This document shows, piece after piece, positions 4,623 to 14,967 of a stretch of 15,041 nt of DNA. Where the stretch lies: positions 1 to 15,041 of the forward strand of contig JAEORO010000090.1 in assembly GCA_016840855.1 (NCBI GenBank), given 5' to 3'. Position 1 is the first letter of the stretch. Every line of letters begins with the position of its first letter. The stretch is from Candidatus Thorarchaeota archaeon. Its GTDB lineage: Archaea > Asgardarchaeota > Thorarchaeia > Thorarchaeales > Thorarchaeaceae. The notes below the pieces were generated by a model. The model was not told the origin of the DNA, did no database searches, and worked only from the letters and a program-made list of their open reading frames with translations. Both the position numbers and the translations under genes were made by a program.

Positions 4623-6008
4623 TCACATACCTCCCACAGGCACTTGCCTGATTCGTGCATGAGGACCTCCAGTCATGGTTGGAACACTCTGTCCATCCTT
4701 TCCGCAAGTTCCTCCTTCCAATTCAAAATCTTTCCCGATGGCGTCAATCTTTGCCAATATTTCTAGGATGTTCCCAGCAAGCGATACATCTCGAACCATA
4801 GTACCTTTCTCGCCATTATGAATTAGATATCCGTGACTAGCTTGGAACATGAATTGTCCTTTTGCTGATTGTGTATAGCCATAATTGAAACTGCACAGAA
4901 GTATGCCATTCTTTGTGTCTTCAATTAGTTCATCTACAGCCCAGTCCTTTGGTTCCATGAAGGTGTTGCTCATTCGTGGAAGAGGGATATGCATGTATGA
5001 CTGAGCTCTTGCGGCACCGTTCGGTTGTTGTTCCAACCGACTTGAAGTTTCCAAACTGTGAAGTAGGTCTGTCAAAACACCATTCTTCACCAAGCACCTT
5101 TTCTTTGTTTCAGTGCCTTCCCAGTCATATTCCGTGGAACCTCTCATTCCAGGCAAAGTTGGATCATCACTAATGCTGAGATATTCAGGACCAACTTCTT
5201 TGCTTACCATGTCTTCAAGCACTGTTGAATGAGCTGGCCAATTATCAGCTTCGGTGGCATGGCCAAAAGCTTCATGGGTTACGACACCATTAAGGGCCGG
5301 GTCCAATACAACATCGTATATCCCTCCTTCAGCCATTTTTGATGATAAGAGCTCGATAGCGAGTTGAGCAGCTTTGGCACCAATGTTTTGCGCCGCTTCA
5401 GTTTCCATTTCTTCGAATCCACTCCGAAGACTTATAGACTGTTGAGTTCGTTGTCTGTTCGGACCTTCTTTTGCTGTCGGAACGGAAATAATGCGAGGGA
5501 TTGAATTTTGGAGATAGATTTGTGTTCCTAAGGAATTTGCAATGAGAAGTTCTGAAGTCAGTTCTCCATATATCGTCCGGGTTGATACGATTCGCTCGTC
5601 AAAATCGCGCGCTTGATCATCAATCATTTTAACAAACTGCATCTTTTCATCAATTGAAACACTTTCGAATGGTTTTTTCACATTCAGAATGACTTTGTCC
5701 TCAAAGACTGGACCATCAATTGTAAATCGCTCTGCAACTTTCTCTTGAGTGGCAATGGCAAGTTTCGCTACTGATTCGCCAGTTGTTCTCATCCCGTCAG
5801 GGGTTAAGTTTGTCGTCTGAGCAAATGCCCAAGCCCCATCAATGAATGCACGGATTCCAGCACCTTTCATTCGAGATGCCATAGATTGTCTTGTGATGCC
5901 ATCATTGAGTTCGATGATTGTTGTGGTTGAGTTTTCTATTCGCACATCAGCGAATGTGACTCCAGTTTTAATAGCTGCATCAAGGGCTGCCTGAGCAAGG
6001 TCTTCCAT
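4623..6008 (-). CDS. tldD: TldD family metalloprotease, catalytic subunit
   Basis: HEAFGHATEAD metal-binding motif, DDPT, YDWEG, NGAARA, PRMSNT and the C-terminal CGKDGQSVP...GGPH. Start moved from 6122 to ATG 6008 (MEDLAQ), where family similarity begins, after GGGGA. Confidence 0.95.
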   Translation of the reverse strand: MEDLAQAALDAAIKTGVTFADVRIENSTTTIIELNDGITRQSMASRMKGAGIRAFIDGAWAFAQTTNLTPDGMRTTGESVAKLAIATQEKVAERFTIDGPVFEDKVILNVKKPFESVSIDEKMQFVKMIDDQARDFDERIVSTRTIYGELTSELLIANSLGTQIYLQNSIPRIISVPTAKEGPNRQRTQQSISLRSGFEEMETEAAQNIGAKAAQLAIELLSSKMAEGGIYDVVLDPALNGVVTHEAFGHATEADNWPAHSTVLEDMVSKEVGPEYLSISDDPTLPGMRGSTEYDWEGTETKKRCLVKNGVLTDLLHSLETSSRLEQQPNGAARAQSYMHIPLPRMSNTFMEPKDWAVDELIEDTKNGILLCSFNYGYTQSAKGQFMFQASHGYLIHNGEKGTMVRDVSLAGNILEILAKIDAIGKDFELEGGTCGKDGQSVPTMTGGPHARIRQVPVGGM

Positions 6009-6174
6009 GAGTATCCCCTTTGAATTGAGCCTCAGGCAATTAAATTGGATATAACTGATATGGCCTGAACATTCTTTCGCAGCAAAGTTAGGCGATACCT
6101 GAATGTTTCCCGAATAATACACGGGTTATTCTTGGATAACTCCTCGATGTAAGTAGACTACCGGAGGTACTCAC

Positions 6175-7755
6175 TTGACAGAAGATTCCTCAGCTGGACA
6201 ATGTAAATCCTGCCAGTCGAACAGAGCGACACATATGTGTGAAGATTGTGGAGCGGCTTTATGTTCCGAATGCTTAGAATCAAGATCTAGTGAGTACACC
6301 GTCTGTAGTGAGTGCCATCATACACTTGGGACTCCAATACCTGGAGAAAAGTTCGAAGAGTGTCCACAATGTGAATCAAAGGAGTTGAGCAAGGGAAGAA
6401 AGACTGTCGACATCTGTCCAAGATGTCATTCGTCAAGGGTATCATTTCTTGAAGACCGAAGAAGATCCTTGGCATTAGACATGCGTCATGCAATCATGAC
6501 AGTTCAATATGGTCATACAAAGCTCAGAGAGTTCACAAACAAGCTCGCAGGGGTGAAGAGACTGCTTGTGTCTCTTAGGATGGCAAACTTCTTGCATTAT
6601 AAGTGGATAGAAGAAAAGATTGAGGCTATTCAGAATGAACTTCCAGCAATTAAGAATAGAATAGCCAGTCAGGCTGAAATCATAGCTAAGAGGATGGCTG
6701 CAGAAACAAAAGGGTACATTGACTACACCCAATGGAATCCGACCCAATTCCCATTCATTGAAGGAATCACCAATAGAATTACAGAAATGGGAATCCATTA
6801 CAAACAGAATGTCGATGAATCACTGGAGCCTTTGAGAAGCACACTAAAAGATGTCAGAAGGCAGCTCGATGGACTCGACTACTATAAGGGACAGTTTGCA
6901 TCATTCTATGAACACTGTCAACTTTCAGTAGGAGAACTCCCTGTCTGTGCACTTCCTGATATTAAGATTGCAGGAAGTGATTTTCTCAAGAATGACAAGG
7001 CTCTTGGAACTCTATTCATCACAAACAAAAGACTCCTTTTCATTGCAGAAACCGGACGAGTCAGGAAAAAAATGGATACAATCTTTGACTTTCCATTAAT
7101 CTACTTGAAATCAATTGAAGAAGACGGAAGATTGCGAAAACGCCTAGTCTTGAAACTAAAGCAAGGAGAGATTAGAGCAACCTGCTCAGACCAGACAAAG
7201 AGGGTTCTCCCAGATTATATCGAGATTGCACGAAAGTTCGAGAAATACATTCAGACAGATATGCAAAGAGTCAGAAAAATCGAACAAAACGAGGTCAGTA
7301 CAAGTGACGTGAGACTCAAGATTGAAGGAATGGTATATTCACTCCTCTCTACCAATGACCAGTTAGAATATGATGAAAATGCATCCTTAATGAAACCTGG
7401 TCCAAGACCTAGAATAGGGACCTGGGAATCAAGTCCTATTCGTCGTAATCCCTATGACAGCTACTACAGGAAACCTGAGTCATTTCGTGATGAGCTCGAC
7501 CGAGTAATTGGAAGATACGATCAGACACAGAATACTCCACCACCAATCTATGATGCAAGTCCTCGGATGCAATCATTACGTAGAGATGCAGTATCCATTG
7601 ATAATGCAATCAAAGATACGGTGCATATGCTTAGAAGTGGACAACTAATTGCTGAAGATTTCATTCGAAGATATAAAGATCTGATGAGAAACTCATATCA
7701 CAATAAACGTGAGATTGAACGCGTATCACGAGACAATCGTGACAATCTTTGGTAG
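6175..7755 (+). CDS. Multi-domain protein: six CxxC Zn-finger motifs, coiled coil, PH/GRAM/GLUE-like domain and C-terminal steadiness-box-like domain (putative ESCRT-I Vps23/37-like subunit)
   Basis: TTG start after SD GGAGGT. CxxC at aa 10, 22, 30, 44, 63 and 81; helical heptad-like aa ~92-245; GTLFITNKRLLF (aa 278) typical of GRAM/GLUE-type PH folds; C-terminal NAIKDTVHMLRSGQLIAEDFIRRYKDLMRNSY resembles the TSG101/Vps37 core hairpin. The CDS is secure; domain calls are by eye. Confidence 0.7.
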   Translation: MTEDSSAGQCKSCQSNRATHMCEDCGAALCSECLESRSSEYTVCSECHHTLGTPIPGEKFEECPQCESKELSKGRKTVDICPRCHSSRVSFLEDRRRSLALDMRHAIMTVQYGHTKLREFTNKLAGVKRLLVSLRMANFLHYKWIEEKIEAIQNELPAIKNRIASQAEIIAKRMAAETKGYIDYTQWNPTQFPFIEGITNRITEMGIHYKQNVDESLEPLRSTLKDVRRQLDGLDYYKGQFASFYEHCQLSVGELPVCALPDIKIAGSDFLKNDKALGTLFITNKRLLFIAETGRVRKKMDTIFDFPLIYLKSIEEDGRLRKRLVLKLKQGEIRATCSDQTKRVLPDYIEIARKFEKYIQTDMQRVRKIEQNEVSTSDVRLKIEGMVYSLLSTNDQLEYDENASLMKPGPRPRIGTWESSPIRRNPYDSYYRKPESFRDELDRVIGRYDQTQNTPPPIYDASPRMQSLRRDAVSIDNAIKDTVHMLRSGQLIAEDFIRRYKDLMRNSYHNKREIERVSRDNRDNLW

Positions 7756-7757
7756 CG

Positions 7758-8375
7758 TTACACACCAAGTTCTTTTTCTAAAGCCTTGATGTCTTCCTCA
7801 AGGGTCTCAGCTTCACCAACAGGTCTTGCAACTGTTGCAGCATCAGCTAATCCTGCTTCAGCATCAATCTCTTGAAAAGCAAAGCTGAGGTCTTCAGAAG
7901 ACACTTCCATTGTCGAGTCTAGTGCTTCGTCTGAGATACTAGCCTCAATCTCAAATTCCTCTAGGCGTCGAGCAATCTCATCCACATTAGCAACAAGTTT
8001 TGTAGCATCGGTCCCATCACCAAGCATTCCAAGGATTTTAGCAACTTCTTGAAGGGCTATCGACGTTTTTGCAGATGTCTGAGCACGATTCAGGTGAGCT
8101 AGAATCTTCAGTATCTGCAAACGCGATTTATCAACAGACAGAGCATATCTACGAAACCGTACCATCTCGGTAGCATATGTTCGATAAGCTTCCATTTGGC
8201 TACCTTTTCGTGCTCGGACTGCTCGTGCCTTTGCATCACGTTCTTCTTTTTCTAACTTGTTTCTTTGGCGCGCCAGTTGTTTTGATAGAATCCTGAGGCG
8301 ACTTGATATCTCACCGATGTCTGGTTTCTTTCTACCCCAAGAAAACGCCTTTCTAATTGAACCCAAGAATCTCAC
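7758..8375 (-). CDS. ESCRT-III (Snf7-domain) protein, Vps2/24/46 class
   Basis: Basic N-terminal helical hairpin (LRILSKQLARQRNKLEKEE...AYRTYATEMVRFRR, like Did2/Vps24), acidic C-terminal half, terminal amphipathic helix LEEDIKALEKEL (MIM1-like), and position next to Vps4. Start is GTG 8375 or TTG 8366. Confidence 0.92.
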   Translation of the reverse strand: MRFLGSIRKAFSWGRKKPDIGEISSRLRILSKQLARQRNKLEKEERDAKARAVRARKGSQMEAYRTYATEMVRFRRYALSVDKSRLQILKILAHLNRAQTSAKTSIALQEVAKILGMLGDGTDATKLVANVDEIARRLEEFEIEASISDEALDSTMEVSSEDLSFAFQEIDAEAGLADAATVARPVGEAETLEEDIKALEKELGV

Positions 8376-8518
8376 CTAATTCTAGGAGCTTTAGCTCCAT
8401 TCTCTCAAAGGGAAGATAGCGTTTAAACCTTCGCAGTTCGAAGATGATATCATGTATGTATATGCTGGGTATGACAGAAATTCTTAACACCTTTTGAACA
8501 GTGTTCACATGAACTCAC
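8376..8518. promoter_or_regulatory. Divergent promoter region between ESCRT-III and vps4
   Basis: 143-nt head-to-head gap with palindromic GTTTAAAC (8421-8428), GAAATTCTTAA about 30 nt before the vps4 ATG, and a small inverted repeat GGAGCT-tt-AGCTCC (8385-8398). Confidence 0.45.
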
Positions 8519-9736
8519 ATGGCGGATCGCGTTGATCATGGGCTGAAAGCATTGCTCACAAAGGCAATAGAGCTGGATCAGAGGGGTATGAAAAAAGATG
8601 CTTGCCAAGAGTATCTCAAGGCAAGTAAGATACTTATCAAATTATCAAACTCTGCAGCATTACCCTCTGTCAAAAAGCACTATCTTGACCGAGCTCAAGA
8701 ATGCGTAGACCGGGTAAGGTATCTCTCAGGAATCAAGAAGAAAACACAGGGACCTATAGATGGACTTGTTGTACCTCCAAAAATGGATATAGGCTCAGCA
8801 GAACCTGTTCCAATCCAAGAGACCTCAAAGGCAGATGTAGAGTTAGATGATGATGAAAAAAGACTCAGAGAGATGATATCTGACACCATCATCACTGAGC
8901 GACCGAAAATCAAGATGTCTGAAGTCGCAGGTCTAGGAGATGCAAAACAAGCAATTGATGATGCAATTTTGGCACCCATGAAACACCCAGAACTCTTCAA
9001 AGGAAAAGCACGTCAACCATGGCGGGGCATTCTTTTCTACGGACCTGCAGGTTGTGGTAAGACCCTTGTTGCCAAAGCTGTCGCTTCTGAGGTCAATGCT
9101 ACTTTCTTCAATGTTTCAGCTGCAAACATTGTAAGCAAATGGTTAGGAGAATCGGAAAGGCTAGTGATGAGTCTGTTTGAATTGGCTAGAAAGAACCAAC
9201 CGGCAATCATCTTCATTGATGAACTCGATTCCATTGGGGTTTCCAGATCAGGGGATGACGTGGGAGGTGAACGACGTCTGAAGACGCAGTTGCTTACAGA
9301 ACTGCAAGGATTAGCTAGCAATGAGGAAGACCGTATCACACTCATTGGAGCAACGAACCTCCCATGGGAATTGGATTTTGCTTTACGTTCAAGATTCGAA
9401 AAGAAAATTCATGTTCCTCTACCGGACAGGGAAGCCCGAACAAAGATTTTCGAAATTCATATGGATGATGTAGAAATTTCACCCACTGTTGAATATGAAG
9501 AGCTCGCGGATCTTACAGAGGGATATAGTGGAAGAGACATCAGTGTGGTCTGCCGTGAGGCTGCGATGGAGCCAATAAGGGATTTGCAGCGTTCAGGTAG
9601 AATGGATGATGAGCAGGAGATCCTTGATATTCGTCCTGTATCGAGAGATGATTTCCTATATGCGATAGAAAATATCCGTCCTGCAACTCCCCCAGAGGAT
9701 GTCAAACGATACATTGACTGGGCGGAGGGTTCCTAA
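8519..9736 (+). CDS. vps4: Vps4 AAA+ ATPase with N-terminal MIT domain
   Basis: MIT-like three-helix N-terminus (KAIELDQRGMKKDACQEY...YLDRAQE), PWRGILFYGPAGCGKT Walker A, SKWLGESERLV pore loop 1, IIFIDE Walker B, GATNLPWELD SRH and TEGYSGRDI. Located in an ESCRT context. Confidence 0.95.
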   Translation: MADRVDHGLKALLTKAIELDQRGMKKDACQEYLKASKILIKLSNSAALPSVKKHYLDRAQECVDRVRYLSGIKKKTQGPIDGLVVPPKMDIGSAEPVPIQETSKADVELDDDEKRLREMISDTIITERPKIKMSEVAGLGDAKQAIDDAILAPMKHPELFKGKARQPWRGILFYGPAGCGKTLVAKAVASEVNATFFNVSAANIVSKWLGESERLVMSLFELARKNQPAIIFIDELDSIGVSRSGDDVGGERRLKTQLLTELQGLASNEEDRITLIGATNLPWELDFALRSRFEKKIHVPLPDREARTKIFEIHMDDVEISPTVEYEELADLTEGYSGRDISVVCREAAMEPIRDLQRSGRMDDEQEILDIRPVSRDDFLYAIENIRPATPPEDVKRYIDWAEGS

Positions 9737-9739
9737 AGA

Positions 9740-10477
9740 TTGGGCGTTCGAGAGAGAAAGAGAGAGAAAGAAAAAACAAAGGAATCAGCAGAAACTATAG
9801 AACAGGAACCAAAGGAACCAAAATCAACTTTTGAGAATTCTAAGACCGAGGAAGTAGCACATAGTCCTGATGTTGTTTTGGAAATCACAGAATCAATTGG
9901 AATTGTAGAATCTGGGAACCATGAGGAAGCTACAGAAGAATCAATCGCAGAGGTTGTGATGACCGAACCAGAGTTCGTAATGCCAAGTTGGGGAGATATT
10001 GAGGAAACTGAATGGATGTATGGGATTCCAACAAGAGAAGACGACAAAGGACTTTGGGCAGGAGAATGGGCTGATTACATATTAGAATGGGCTGAGAGAA
10101 GAAAGGTACATGTGCTCTCAGTTGCTACTTTCATTAGTGAACCACCATTCAAAGACTTGAGAAACAAAGTTGATTCATTCAAAGCGATTTCTGAGGTCCT
10201 TATAGAGAAAGAAGTTGCTGAGTGGATAGATAAGAAAAAACGACAGCTTAGAGTCTATTGGCGACCTCTTGAGGATTGGGCAGATATCCTCTATCAATGG
10301 GCACTCAAAACAGGAAAGCTACGGCTTGATGTGAAGTCAATAGTCATTCAGGAAGTAGAAGAAGACTTTGCGAGTTTGCCAGAGAAAGATATACACATTG
10401 TACTAGCTTTAATGGTGAAGAAAGGGCAAGCCAGCTGGATTGATGAGAAGAAAGGTGCAATTCTAATCTCCACTTAG
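9740..10477 (+). CDS. vps25: ESCRT-II Vps25-like tandem winged-helix protein with acidic N-terminal extension
   Basis: EWADYILEWA, AEWIDKKKRQLRVYWRPLEDWADILYQWA and LALMVKKGQA match the Vps25 pattern (human LEWLDKSKSSFLIMWRRPEEWGKLIYQWV). Starts 3 nt after the vps4 stop. Confidence 0.88.
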   Translation: MGVRERKREKEKTKESAETIEQEPKEPKSTFENSKTEEVAHSPDVVLEITESIGIVESGNHEEATEESIAEVVMTEPEFVMPSWGDIEETEWMYGIPTREDDKGLWAGEWADYILEWAERRKVHVLSVATFISEPPFKDLRNKVDSFKAISEVLIEKEVAEWIDKKKRQLRVYWRPLEDWADILYQWALKTGKLRLDVKSIVIQEVEEDFASLPEKDIHIVLALMVKKGQASWIDEKKGAILIST

Positions 10478-10479
10478 CA

Positions 10480-11247
10480 TTAGAATGCGCTATTGTTTCT
10501 TGGATCAGAGCTATCACGAGCCCTGAGTCCAGGGAAATAGTATCGACCCCCTGTGGAAAAACGAATGTCTGCAACAGCCATGCCTGCATCAACTAAACTA
10601 GTTAATACTTGACGAGCGTGATCTTCAGACCATTTGAGCTGTAGAATGACTTCCTCCAAAGAAACATATCCTTTGGCAGCTGCTAGGTTAATCACATCAG
10701 CTTGATCTCTGCGTAGTTCAAGTGGTCGAAGTTCAACGACCTTCACCCCACCTCTGAGAGTTCGAATACCAGGGATGAGACCATTATCAGCCAAACGATT
10801 GACTGATTCTATTACATCATTGTATGTCACAGATTCAAGCTCTGGAAGACGTCTAACAACCTCAACAATCAGCTCAGCCAGCCCCATGATCCCCTTTGAC
10901 GAATGTTCTGTTGCTACATCAAGTATTGCTAGACCGATATAATCGTAGAATTGGTCTAATGTCATGCCTTGGAGTGATCGTCGTGGAGCATGATTAGTAA
11001 GACGGAGCATGTTTGAGGCTTCAGGAAACACTTCGATAATTCGTTCAGATGATACAAAAGTGCCAATATCAAGACCCATCCTTCGCATGTTCTCAATTTG
11101 TGAACGAACATCGTGTAAGAGAGCTGTTGACTCTCTTTGATATGATCGAATATCCACTGCGCCAAGATCATAGAGCTTCTTCAATTGATCAAGAGTAGCA
11201 ATCGAAGCATAGAGTTCCGAATGAAGTCGCTCGTGCATTGGATACAT
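10480..11247 (-). CDS. Vps22/Vps36 (EAP30)-like ESCRT-II subunit with a fused N-terminal Vps28-N-like domain
   Basis: aa ~98-242 (FYDYIGLAILDV...PLELRRDQADVINLAAAKGYVSLEEVILQLKWSEDHARQVLTSLVDAGMAVAD...YYFPGL) aligns by eye with SNF8/Vps22. aa ~4-82 (SELYASIATLDQLKKLY...SYQRESTALL...FPEASNMLR) resembles the Vps28 N-terminal core. Confidence 0.85.
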   Translation of the reverse strand: MYPMHERLHSELYASIATLDQLKKLYDLGAVDIRSYQRESTALLHDVRSQIENMRRMGLDIGTFVSSERIIEVFPEASNMLRLTNHAPRRSLQGMTLDQFYDYIGLAILDVATEHSSKGIMGLAELIVEVVRRLPELESVTYNDVIESVNRLADNGLIPGIRTLRGGVKVVELRPLELRRDQADVINLAAAKGYVSLEEVILQLKWSEDHARQVLTSLVDAGMAVADIRFSTGGRYYFPGLRARDSSDPRNNSAF

Positions 11248-11363
11248 TCCCTTTGTATTCTAATCCGCACTAGGTCGGTAATTGATGTTGAACTGCTAGT
11301 GCTTTAAGAGGGAGTATTATGAGATTATACATAACATCCAATAGGATCACGTAGAACATTGCT

Positions 11364-11375
11364 GAAACTTATATT
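11364..11375 (+). promoter_or_regulatory. Putative BRE/TATA for a leaderless YbjQ-family transcript
   Basis: GAAACTTATATT ends about 22 nt before ATG 11397, and there is no SD. This geometry is typical of archaeal leaderless mRNA. Confidence 0.55.
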
Positions 11376-11396
11376 CCTACATTTTCAACAAGACGT

Positions 11397-11735
11397 ATGA
11401 ACGAAGGAATTATAGTAGTAACACTACCACATTTACCAGGCTATAGAATCATTAGGATAATAGGGATTGTCCATGGACTAACAGTAAGAACTCGAGGCGT
11501 AGGTGGAAAGATTTCTGCTGGTATTTCTGGGATATTTGGAGGTGAAGTGCACTCCTACACTGAGGAATGTGAGAGGTCTAAAGCTGAAGCGTTGATGAGA
11601 CTGCAAGAGAATGCGCTACGCATGGGTGCCAATGCAGTAATTGGTGCAGACTTTGAAACAAGTGATATTCTCGCTGGGACTGCCACGGTTTTTTCAGCTT
11701 ACGGGACTGCGGCTATCGTAGAAGCTGAATACTAG
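11397..11735 (+). CDS. YbjQ/UPF0145 family putative heavy-metal-binding protein
   Basis: LPGYRIIRIIGIVHG, IFGGEVHSYT, ALRMGANAVIG and AYGTAA motifs; 112 aa. Confidence 0.93.
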   Translation: MNEGIIVVTLPHLPGYRIIRIIGIVHGLTVRTRGVGGKISAGISGIFGGEVHSYTEECERSKAEALMRLQENALRMGANAVIGADFETSDILAGTATVFSAYGTAAIVEAEY

Positions 11736-13354: not shown

Positions 13355-13588
13355 TTACATGGGCGCTCGAACCAGCTCGTAGACCCGCTCCCTCGCGTCG
13401 TTCTCATGTTCTTCTTCCCGAATGAGACCTAGAGCCTTTAATCTACTAAGACCATAGTTCACTGTTCTAGGAGGAAGGTATGTGTTGCTAATTAGGTCTT
13501 GCCGGGACATTCGTCGCCGGTTCTTAAGCAGCACATATAGGAACTTCGCAGAAGGAGGTAGAGACAAGAATGAGCGTCTGGCAAACAT
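13355..13588 (-). CDS. Small winged-HTH (MarR/TrmB-like) transcriptional regulator
   Basis: LPPSAKFLYVLL...LPPRTVNYGLSRLKALGLI...DARERVYEL matches the widespread archaeal 'LPPSAK...DARQ' wHTH family. SD-like AGGTGGGA lies upstream. Confidence 0.85.
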   Translation of the reverse strand: MFARRSFLSLPPSAKFLYVLLKNRRRMSRQDLISNTYLPPRTVNYGLSRLKALGLIREEEHENDARERVYELVRAPM

Positions 13589-13695: not shown

Positions 13696-14967
13696 TCAGT
13701 GTGTAGGCACATGCTGTTCAGTCGCAGGCATACTCGGTCGCTCATTGACCTGCCAAAAGTCTACTATCTTTTTCAATAGTTCAGTGATTCCTTGGCCAGT
13801 TATTGTTGAGGTTTCAATAAAGAAGAGTGGATGAGATTGACCATTCTCACCTAGAGATTTTGCGACCTCATCGCAATATTTGCGAGCTTCCTCTGTTGAA
13901 ACGGGAATATCGATTTCATCATCCTCATCATCATAGACTGGGTGATCACGTAAATCAGTCTTGTTCCCGACAATAATTATCGGAGGAGGAATCAAGAAAG
14001 CATTGGATAGTTCACGCACCCAGAAGTCGAGACTGTCAAAGCTCCATCTATCAGCTACTGAATACACAAGTACTGCAATCCCTGATCCTGTGTAGAACTC
14101 TGTTTTGGGTATTTTTGCCTCCATACTCTTCGGGAATGTCCATGCATCAACTCGAACATTTGACCCGTTATGTTCAATGATGTTGCTGAAGGTGAATGGC
14201 TTGGTGGGGGATAAGTCAAGAGAAGAGTAGTCATTTCCAAGCTTCAGATTACATTCAAAGATTATACTATTAACCCCAACTCCTTCCTCTCCAAGGAATA
14301 AGACTTTGAGATCCAATAAGTCTGAGATTGCCTCAGGTGAAGATTTCGCTTCTTCAGAAACATCTTCTAATGACGCTACAATCTCAGGTTCGTCCCAAAG
14401 GAATTTCACTGGTCTATCTGTGTCAGATGATTGTGTACGGGGTGTAGGAGTGCTTTCTGGAATATTCTCTGCATGGAAGGAATACACTAAGCCTTTGACT
14501 TCCTCACTTAGTGGGACATCCCAGATACTCATTGTCTGTGGGGCGGGAGTGTCTGTCTTTAGATCTTCAAGCTGATCTTCAAGCTGGTCTTCAAATTCAG
14601 GCGTTGCGACTATTACATTACTTTTGATCTCGTCAGAGATTTTAATTTTGCCAGTGGGAGAGAGGAATTCATCTTTTAAGCTATCAAGAGTGTTCAAAGC
14701 GCGTGAGAGTTCCAGCAAATCTTCCTTTGTTAACTCATCCTCTCCAGGAATCAAATCAACCTCGGGGAGTCCAACTCTTTTCAAAATGAACTTCAGAATC
14801 GGGTGAGGGACATTGAATCCGCGCAAATACGCAAATCGTTGCACCTCATCCATGATGTCTTTGAAGGATTTACCAGCAAACGTAAGTCTTCGAGTAACAG
14901 CGGGGTCCTTAATGTAGATACGATTGACCTTGAGACTTATGTCGATATTTGTCCCTGGGATTTGCAT
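13696..14967 (-). CDS. Protein with an uncharacterised N-terminal domain, an acidic linker and a C-terminal degenerate Rab/Ras-like small GTPase domain
   Basis: From aa ~219: LKVLFLGEEGVGVNS (G1-like), FYTGSGIAVLVYSVADRWSF, PIIIVGNKTDL (G4) and FIETSTITGQGITELL (G5). Confidence 0.88.
   Translation of the reverse strand: MQIPGTNIDISLKVNRIYIKDPAVTRRLTFAGKSFKDIMDEVQRFAYLRGFNVPHPILKFILKRVGLPEVDLIPGEDELTKEDLLELSRALNTLDSLKDEFLSPTGKIKISDEIKSNVIVATPEFEDQLEDQLEDLKTDTPAPQTMSIWDVPLSEEVKGLVYSFHAENIPESTPTPRTQSSDTDRPVKFLWDEPEIVASLEDVSEEAKSSPEAISDLLDLKVLFLGEEGVGVNSIIFECNLKLGNDYSSLDLSPTKPFTFSNIIEHNGSNVRVDAWTFPKSMEAKIPKTEFYTGSGIAVLVYSVADRWSFDSLDFWVRELSNAFLIPPPIIIVGNKTDLRDHPVYDDEDDEIDIPVSTEEARKYCDEVAKSLGENGQSHPLFFIETSTITGQGITELLKKIVDFWQVNERPSMPATEQHVPTH
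14563..14594. repeat. In-frame 12-nt tandem repeat (~2.7 copies) encoding EDQLEDQLED
   Basis: ATCTTCAAGCTG ATCTTCAAGCTG GTCTTCAA, within the linker of the GTPase-like gene. Confidence 0.75.

Follow-up and report, generated by a model that had tools for sequence, protein, structure and literature searches.

A Thorarchaeota ESCRT gene cluster that probably works without canonical ubiquitin

Can five adjacent genes supply a complete ESCRT (endosomal sorting complexes that are required for transport) pathway that operates without ubiquitin? The question is raised by positions 6175-11247 of a 15,041-base stretch of DNA from Candidatus Thorarchaeota archaeon (contig JAEORO010000090.1 of assembly GCA_016840855.1; hereafter the window), for which an initial annotation drew an entire chain from ESCRT-I through ESCRT-II and ESCRT-III to Vps4. 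Among prokaryotes, it is the Asgard ESCRT systems that are most closely related to the sorting machinery of eukaryotes. The window spans contig C19 from end to end. The metagenome-assembled genome (MAG) to which it belongs (3.36 Mb in 259 contigs) has a completeness of 92% and a contamination of 6.3%, so that any genome-wide absence given below is to be read as "not found". We conclude that the cluster is genuine, that it probably functions without canonical ubiquitin and that it is not self-contained. In the reading that we favor, and consider fairly probable, it is the standard Thorarchaeota ESCRT cluster, a reduced and domain-permuted Asgard set of ESCRT-I/II/III and Vps4 in a lineage without eukaryote-type ubiquitin, E2, UEV-Vps23 or full-length Vps28.

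The five open reading frames (ORFs) are exactly as first annotated, contiguous and almost without spacers, and their identities are borne out by Pfam, family profiles, AlphaFold2 (AF2) models and Foldseek. Four of them exceed Pfam's own cut-offs (Snf7; AAA and Vps4_C; ESCRT-II/Vps25; EAP30). We use "Thor" for Thorarchaeota-type genomes and loci, and ZnPHSB for the Zn-ribbon/coiled-coil/PH/steadiness-box protein (the ORF6175 family). From left to right, with lengths in amino acids (aa), the genes are:

6175 to 7755, forward strand: ZnPHSB (Znr_CC_PH_SB type), 526 aa
7758 to 8375, reverse strand: ESCRT-III, assigned to the Vps2/24/46 (ESCRT-IIIA) class, 205 aa
8519 to 9736, forward strand: Vps4 AAA+ ATPase (MIT, AAA, lid and Vps4_C), 405 aa
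9740 to 10477, forward strand: Vps25 (ESCRT-II), 245 aa, starting 3 bases past the Vps4 stop
10480 to 11247, reverse strand: Vps28N-Vps22 fusion (SB-fused Vps22), 255 aa

ESCRT-I-type hairpins in ORF6175 and ORF11247

From its N to its C terminus, ORF6175 is laid out as three Zn ribbons, a helical coiled-coil (residues 92-241), a PH/GLUE-like domain (256-353), further helices (363-403), a disordered linker (398-458) and a Vps23-type steadiness-box (SB) hairpin (463-487/493-525). The ribbons hold 12 Cys in six CxxC pairs (residues 10-84). The AF2 model (mean pLDDT 85.1, pTM 0.63) has beta-ribbons at 20-91, helices at 92-136, 144-177 and 189-241 and, at 256-353, a beta-sandwich that ends in a helix, and Foldseek returned PH domains that include the EAP45 GLUE domain (2hth_B, TMt 0.56), the Vps36 PH domain (2cay_A, 0.55) and the MTMR2 GRAM-PH. 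When a 28-member family profile was run against the PDB, the yeast Vps23 SB came out on top (2p22_A, 1.4e-5; 2f66_A, 1.6e-5; 2caz_A, 1.1e-4), followed by TSG101 (6vme_B, 6.9e-4) and, weakly, by VPS37B (0.052) and the Vps36 PH domain (0.093). Pfam Vps23_core matches 6 of the 28 family members, the window protein not being among them at E ≤ 0.01, and a profile of the ZnPHSB hairpin matches Asgard UEV-Vps23 proteins in their C-terminal hairpins (8e-10 to 3e-13). In ORF6175 itself, Pfam matched neither UEV nor UQ_con. As judged from these matches, ORF6175 has the SB hairpin without the UEV domain and is not a Vps23 orthologue.

Its architecture is that of Znr_CC_PH_SB, which the text of Makarova et al. 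(2024, mBio; PMC10936438) presents as a likely ESCRT-I component (asCOG cog.011556), ancestral in Asgard, with a PH domain expected to be membrane-associated; in both, three Zn ribbons are followed by a coiled coil, then the PH domain and the SB, the match being one of description. An exhaustive HMMER search with ORF6175 yielded 94 representative clusters within E ≤ 1e-3, of which 73 were also within E ≤ 1e-10; the matches mostly span residues 9-395. With the 28-member profile the family was found at E ≤ 1e-8 in 165 of 201 Asgard genomes, including 42 of the 43 in the organism's own family, in agreement with the ancestral status given in that text. As most of these genomes have ubiquitin and the carriers include ubiquitin-bearing families, we rejected the idea that ZnPHSB is an adaptation to life without ubiquitin.

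Two further observations concern this family. The N-terminal Zn module (6175-6450, residues 1-91) is weakly B-box/RING/PHD/FYVE-like: Pfam zf-B_box is matched in 10 of the 28 members, and the profile of the family also picks up the RNF4 RING (2e-4) and FYVE domains (0.006-0.03). A non-Thor Asgard genome (G053) encodes a 604-aa family member (L054:9392-11203, forward strand) of Vps36-like architecture, in which EAP30 winged helices are joined to the Zn/coiled-coil/PH head; its PH region matches Pfam Vps36_ESCRT-II (1.8e-4), and it is possibly of the cog.002441 type of Makarova et al.

ORF11247 matches Pfam EAP30 (PF04157) at 52.3 bits (cut-off 26.8) over profile positions 75-218 only. A profile built from 30 orthologues retrieved human Vps22 (SNF8) from the PDB at 7.1e-20 (positions 90-242) and four yeast Vps28 N-terminal chains of ESCRT-I core structures at 0.08-0.12 (positions 6-70). 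AF2 predicts a hairpin of helices 3-27 and 33-56 (pLDDT > 90), short helices at 61-81 and then two winged-helix domains; for this model Foldseek ranked Vps22 first (3cuq_A, 9.3e-8) and also returned the ESCRT-I headpiece chain 6vme_V (TMt 0.62). The N-terminal profile of Thor Vps22 (residues 4-88) matched the N-termini of six non-Thor Asgard proteins (1.7e-11 to 5.5e-16), in alignments running from profile positions 4-6 to 76-84 of 85, and Pfam confirms VPS28 (profile 2-176 or more) for the five of these that were scanned, all but the one from L054. The Thor N-terminal profile matched no non-Thor Vps22, even at E ≤ 10. By comparison, two non-Thor Asgard Vps22 proteins cover the whole EAP30 profile (2-218 and 2-219), and the Vps22 of other-Asgard clusters spans 2-218 whereas the Thor fusion spans 75-218. 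The alignments indicate that the canonical Vps22 N-terminal helices (EAP30 ~1-74) are missing from ORF11247 and that a Vps28-N hairpin stands in their place. The Vps28 C-terminal four-helix bundle was not found in ORF11247, where Vps22 winged helices follow past residue ~90 and PF03997 has no match beyond position 60. ORF11247 is not a Vps28 and holds merely its N-terminal module. Translation probably begins at its second ATG (M4), as it does in orthologues; in the homologue search, the best 120 of 136 matches were Thor-type orthologues only, the weakest of the 120 at 62% identity, with no distant relative among them.

Both helical domains are thus matched to ESCRT-I by profile, as the initial annotation had proposed, with a Vps23/TSG101-like hairpin in ORF6175 and a Vps28-N-like N-terminus in ORF11247. 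The text of Makarova et al. also describes an SB-fused Vps22 ("Vps22#", cog.002769), which like ORF11247 joins an SB hairpin to Vps22 winged helices.

Six-frame profile searches of the organism's own genome located the Vps23-type hairpin in ORF6175 only and the Vps28-N-type hairpin in ORF11247 only. We modelled ZnPHSB residues 455-526 with residues 1-92 of the fusion in three runs and with three controls. The pairing of the two hairpins that had been predicted was reproduced in the model, with an ipSAE of 0.85 in all three runs compared with 0.00 for the best control, partner pLDDT of at least 84 and at least 98% of contacts common to the runs. Of 80 solved complexes 58 reach the pass mark of the complex tool, as do 2 of 110 mismatched pairs, a calibration that is rough here since the alignments were custom-made. 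The modelled interface joins ZnPHSB ~483-512 to fusion ~6-43, and its residues are slightly better conserved than the remaining hairpin (0.80 versus 0.68; 0.81 versus 0.70). We take the model to report the likeness of the pair to an ESCRT-I headpiece, as distinct from binding.

The explicit SB-to-Vps28N wiring is a plausible and modest addition to what has been published. Neither hairpin-hairpin pairing nor the Vps28-N type of the Vps22-fused hairpin was found stated in the text of PMC10936438, and the pairing was not found stated in the text consulted from the Asgard ESCRT literature, the figures and supplements of which may hold it. The yeast two-hybrid results given in the text of Hatano et al. 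(2022, Nat Commun; PMC9192718) include a Thor steadiness-box protein that may interact with a "Vps28", a pair that may correspond to ORF6175 and ORF11247. What is useful here is a concrete contact that can be tested and the specific assignment of the Vps22-fused hairpin to the Vps28-N type.

With the eukaryotic ESCRT-I headpiece and ESCRT-II (2f66, 2caz, 2p22, 6vme and 3cuq) the cluster shares Vps23-type and Vps28-N-type hairpins, Vps22 winged helices, Vps25, ESCRT-III and Vps4, and with eukaryotic Vps36 it shares a GLUE-like PH domain with Zn fingers, here on ZnPHSB. Unlike the eukaryotic system it has no UEV, Vps37, Mvb12, Vps28 C-terminal domain, separate Vps36 or ubiquitin, and the domains are redistributed, with the Vps36-like head on the Vps23-type hairpin and Vps28-N on Vps22. 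We tentatively suggest, while giving this more specific proposal somewhat less than even weight, that these proteins form a domain-permuted ESCRT-I/II needing no ubiquitin, in which a Vps36-like Zn-finger/GLUE-PH head on the Vps23-type hairpin would be docked on the Vps28-N hairpin that replaces the Vps22 N-terminus, and would pick targets by binding lipid or, directly, cargo, perhaps in partnership with a 777-aa Vps22/36-like paralogue described below. If this holds, Thorarchaeia would possess a naturally occurring, minimal upstream ESCRT module, one with which to examine the role of ESCRT-I/II before or without ubiquitin.

Linkage of ZnPHSB to ESCRT genes across Asgard archaea

The genome is a Thorarchaeota-type MAG, and the 27 relatives of ORF6175 in the species-representative collection (51-92% identity) are all from Thorarchaeota-type MAGs. 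The Thor gene order (TFIIB, ArgRS, TldD, TldD, ZnPHSB, ESCRT-III, Vps4, Vps25, fusion, AspRS) is kept in all 27 loci as far as the contigs extend. ESCRT-III adjoins ZnPHSB in 26 of them, the 27th contig ending within ZnPHSB, and the 21 loci of sufficient reach all have the five genes. We also surveyed 20 loci from 17 other Asgard families, hand-picked for family spread and not random. With local profiles, an ESCRT-III gene was detected within the locus (up to 20 kb) of the ZnPHSB homologue in 15 of the 20, and some ESCRT gene, often directly adjacent, near it in 16. The link between ORF6175 and ESCRT genes that the initial annotation had put forward is therefore conserved phylum-wide. A ubiquitin gene lies within 20 kb of the ZnPHSB homologue in 4 of the 20 loci. 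Full clusters were seen with ubiquitin in L042, L044 and L045 and without it in L060.

These other-Asgard ubiquitin-ESCRT clusters (L042-L045 and L060) have ZnPHSB, both ESCRT-III classes, Vps4, Vps25 and Vps22 in one neighborhood, as does the Thor set in part, and they add UEV-Vps23, full-length Vps28 (PF03997 2-176 or more) and ubiquitin, the last being absent from L060. Such company elsewhere in Asgard suggests a sorting-type ancestry for the ZnPHSB family and argues against a rival account, in which the cluster sorts no cargo but is a Cdv-type division/abscission or membrane-repair machine, ZnPHSB is a CdvA-like membrane-bound recruiter with a CdvA/SB-like helical hairpin and no tag is read; the GLUE/GRAM-like character of the PH domain also speaks against it. 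In its favor are the failure to find ubiquitin, E2 and UEV, the resemblance of the SB hairpin to CdvA that HHpred gave in the text of PMC10936438, and a weak Pfam CdvA match (0.0059) in 1 of 28 members of the ORF6175 family. An NCBIfam scan of the cluster gave CdvB and CdvC as best named matches, both far below their cut-offs, and nothing further; the CdvC match is to Vps4, at 266.5 bits and below the equivalog cut-off. The Cdv-type account fits the same protein wiring as well, and we regard it as doubtful.

Ubiquitin and other tagging genes

The initial annotation had stated that the cluster comes with no ubiquitin, E1, E2, RING, JAB or UEV gene. No ubiquitin-system gene was found in the window, so this stood, with the qualification that the Zn module of ORF6175 is itself weakly RING/B-box-like; ThiF and JAMM genes occur elsewhere in the genome. 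Ubiquitin (PF00240) was found neither in the organism's own genome nor in any of 43 genomes of its family, compared with 139 of 201 in the phylum sample. For E2 (PF00179, UQ_con) there was again no match in the own genome, and the counts were 0 of 6 in the family and 47 of 61 in the phylum sample; for VPS28 (PF03997) over its cut-off they were none, 0 of 17 and 82 of 121, with only weak matches (E 0.001-0.01) in the own genome and family. UEV (PF05743) had no match in a genome-wide search of the own genome. The domain is detectable in this phylum, as Pfam finds UEV in three Asgard proteins and UQ_con also picks up UEV proteins. Eukaryote-type ubiquitin, E2, UEV-Vps23 and full-length Vps28 were thus not found in this genome or its family.

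These results reproduce the statement in the text of PMC9192718 that Thorarchaeota "seemingly lack ubiquitin homologues" yet retain ESCRT-I/II/III genes. A 2023 preprint, as far as its text goes, likewise has Thor- and Lokiarchaeia without UEV-Vps23. The locus is real and ordinary for its lineage, and its parts and the missing ubiquitin are already published in the texts of PMC10936438 and PMC9192718. The phrase "ubiquitin-independent" was not found applied to Asgard ESCRT in the literature text, figures and supplements excepted. Thorarchaeota offer a natural case of ESCRT-I/II-like parts persisting without ubiquitin.

Other contigs of the genome encode five ThiS/MoaD-fold ORFs, one E1-like ThiF (229 bits) and one JAMM protease (Prok-JAB, 76.7 bits). 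A second rival builds on these genes: the tag would be a SAMP/Urm1-type ThiS/MoaD protein that ThiF attaches, JAMM removes and the Zn ribbon or GLUE-like PH domain of ZnPHSB reads, and the resemblance of that PH domain to the ubiquitin-binding EAP45 GLUE domain would suit such a role. We consider this improbable, as all of the candidate genes lie away from the cluster (contigs C72, C127, C209, C257, C247, C110 and C57) and are general sulfur-carrier or housekeeping genes found in most control genomes (ThiS/MoaD in 11, ThiF in 12 and JAMM in 8 of 14).

Components outside the cluster and flanking genes

Vps25 matches Pfam ESCRT-II (PF05871) at 59.1 bits (cut-off 27; 7.1e-16) over residues 109-194 and is the sole copy of that family in the genome; its N-terminal ~100 residues are acidic and poorly conserved, and orthologue matches often start at residue 18-47. 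Vps4 matches AAA at 135.5 bits (1.9e-39), AAA_lid_3 at 9e-14 and Vps4_C at 22.1 bits (1.5e-4; cut-off 21.3), and its MIT domain at residues 11-69 scores 22.6 bits (1.1e-4), below the cut-off of 30. The ESCRT-III protein matches Snf7 (PF03357) at 38.9 bits (cut-off 27.3) over residues 25-178. Against the PDB it is closest to CHMP1B (9.2e-8), CHMP2A (1e-5) and then CHMP3, with Snf7 at just 0.014-0.045.

A second Snf7-family gene lies on another contig (C32:30810-31487; L040:7810-8487, reverse strand), with a Snf7 score of 62.8 bits (1.6e-16) and best PDB matches to Heimdall ESCRT-IIIB (3e-11) and, further down, yeast Snf7 (7.8e-6). By best-hit ranking, the C32 gene is of the Vps20/32/60 class (ESCRT-IIIB) and the window gene of the Vps2/24/46 class (ESCRT-IIIA). 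Around the C32 gene are a HAD hydrolase gene, inositol monophosphatase-like genes and a Na/Ca exchanger gene, with no ESCRT company. The separation of the two classes looks secondary in Thor, because in non-Thor loci they usually stand side by side and adjoin ZnPHSB. In eukaryotes, Vps25 nucleates ESCRT-III of the Vps20/32/60 class. The nucleating ESCRT-III would therefore be encoded outside the window, as the expected partner of Vps25 is the C32 protein, and a Vps25-ESCRT-IIIB link was reported in an Asgard yeast two-hybrid analysis in the text of PMC9192718.

A second Vps22-like gene also lies elsewhere (C53:9397-11730; L039:6398-8731, forward strand). It encodes a 777-aa protein with a C-terminal tandem winged helix that is 36% identical to ORF11247 over 139 aa (local profile 2e-20; Pfam EAP30 1.6e-4), a CarboxypepD_reg-like stretch and a long unassigned N-terminus, and its 137-member cluster is confined to Thor. 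It could be a Vps36-like second stalk subunit of ESCRT-II. The product of the adjacent gene has 128 aa and a Zn finger of B-box-like type. A weak EAP30 match on C236 was rejected, as its translation and size identify it as MCM. With ESCRT-IIIB on C32 and the 777-aa protein on C53, the claim that a complete chain can be drawn from the five proteins alone did not survive, and we rejected a self-contained cluster. For practical purposes, reconstitution should include both outside genes.

The route that we propose would run as follows. ZnPHSB would be held at a membrane or target by its Zn ribbon and GLUE-like PH modules, by analogy with Vps36. Its C-terminal Vps23-type hairpin is predicted to pack on the Vps28-N-type hairpin of the Vps22 fusion, and this single hairpin contact would do the work of the eukaryotic Vps23-Vps28-Vps36 relay. 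The Vps22 winged helices would bind Vps25, as in solved eukaryotic ESCRT-II and in line with published yeast two-hybrid data, and Vps25 would recruit ESCRT-IIIB from the other contig. The clustered ESCRT-IIIA would then enter the polymer and bring Vps4 for remodelling and recycling.

Several observations weigh against this route and against our reading of the cluster. ORF6175 alone has sub-threshold Pfam matches only, none at E ≤ 0.01, and residues 10-66 of ORF11247 match VPS28 (PF03997, positions 2-60) weakly and below threshold, at E 0.025. The complex model may have scored well by reproducing known ESCRT-I headpieces (2f66, 2caz, 2p22 and 6vme), because Vps23-Vps28 headpieces have already been solved. 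Synteny within Thor is weak evidence of function and says little about it, because the housekeeping flanks are equally fixed, and 4 of the 20 non-Thor loci showed the ZnPHSB homologue without a further ESCRT gene nearby. The 777-aa paralogue could replace or join the fusion in ESCRT-II. A 413-aa all-helical protein (C110:33837-35078; L069:7838-9079, forward strand) has a near-full-length, sub-threshold VPS28 match (E 0.0016 to 0.0096). Finally, the proposed ubiquitin-independent pathway holds up for canonical ubiquitin, E2 and UEV, none of which was found, and not for tags at large: because ThiS/MoaD, ThiF and JAMM are encoded elsewhere in the genome, SAMP-like tagging by another ubiquitin-like protein may occur, and "ubiquitin-independent" is safe for canonical ubiquitin only.

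The extra candidate partners encoded in the genome feed a third rival, in which the ZnPHSB hairpin self-associates or binds the 777-aa Vps22-like or the 413-aa Vps28-like protein, and the Vps28-N hairpin of the fusion serves Vps22 dimerisation. It is consistent with the Thor Vps22 self-interaction and the Odin Vps23 homodimer reported in the text of PMC9192718, and it would gain if the modelled complex were a memory of solved ESCRT-I. The gap between the modelled pair and its controls argues against it, as does the finding that ORF6175 and ORF11247 are the genome's only carriers of the two hairpin types. Neither alternative partner shows either type. For the 413-aa protein, a PDB search found no Vps28 and hhalign against the ORF11247 orthologue alignment gave nothing. 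We therefore judge this arrangement unlikely and retain the pairing of ZnPHSB with the fusion. VPS28 matches of similar size to that of the 413-aa protein occur in two more Thor genomes (G069 and G055).

The flanks are of the housekeeping kind that the initial annotation had described. On the ZnPHSB side are TFIIB, ArgRS and two TldD/PmbA genes, and on the fusion side YbjQ, AspRS, a MarR-like protein of 77 aa with a winged helix, and a Ras/Roc GTPase. A sigma-70 promoter and terminator scan of 6000-11500 gave 10 sites compared with a shuffle mean of 10.7, with a bacterial consensus that is not applicable to archaea. The YbjQ-family gene (11397-11735, forward strand; Pfam 4.6e-30), between the Vps22 fusion and AspRS, has a counterpart in none of the 27 Thor loci and thus looks like an insertion private to the present genome; five relatives (L010, L021 and L025-L027) have 0.5-1.2 kb of different sequence at this spot. 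The MarR-like gene (13355-13588, reverse strand) follows AspRS in every Thor locus of sufficient reach, and its product is 77-100% identical across them. The Ras/Roc small GTPase (13696-14967, reverse strand) has an N-terminal extension of ~220 residues and is matched in 10 of the 27 Thor loci, with two copies each in L011 and L012.

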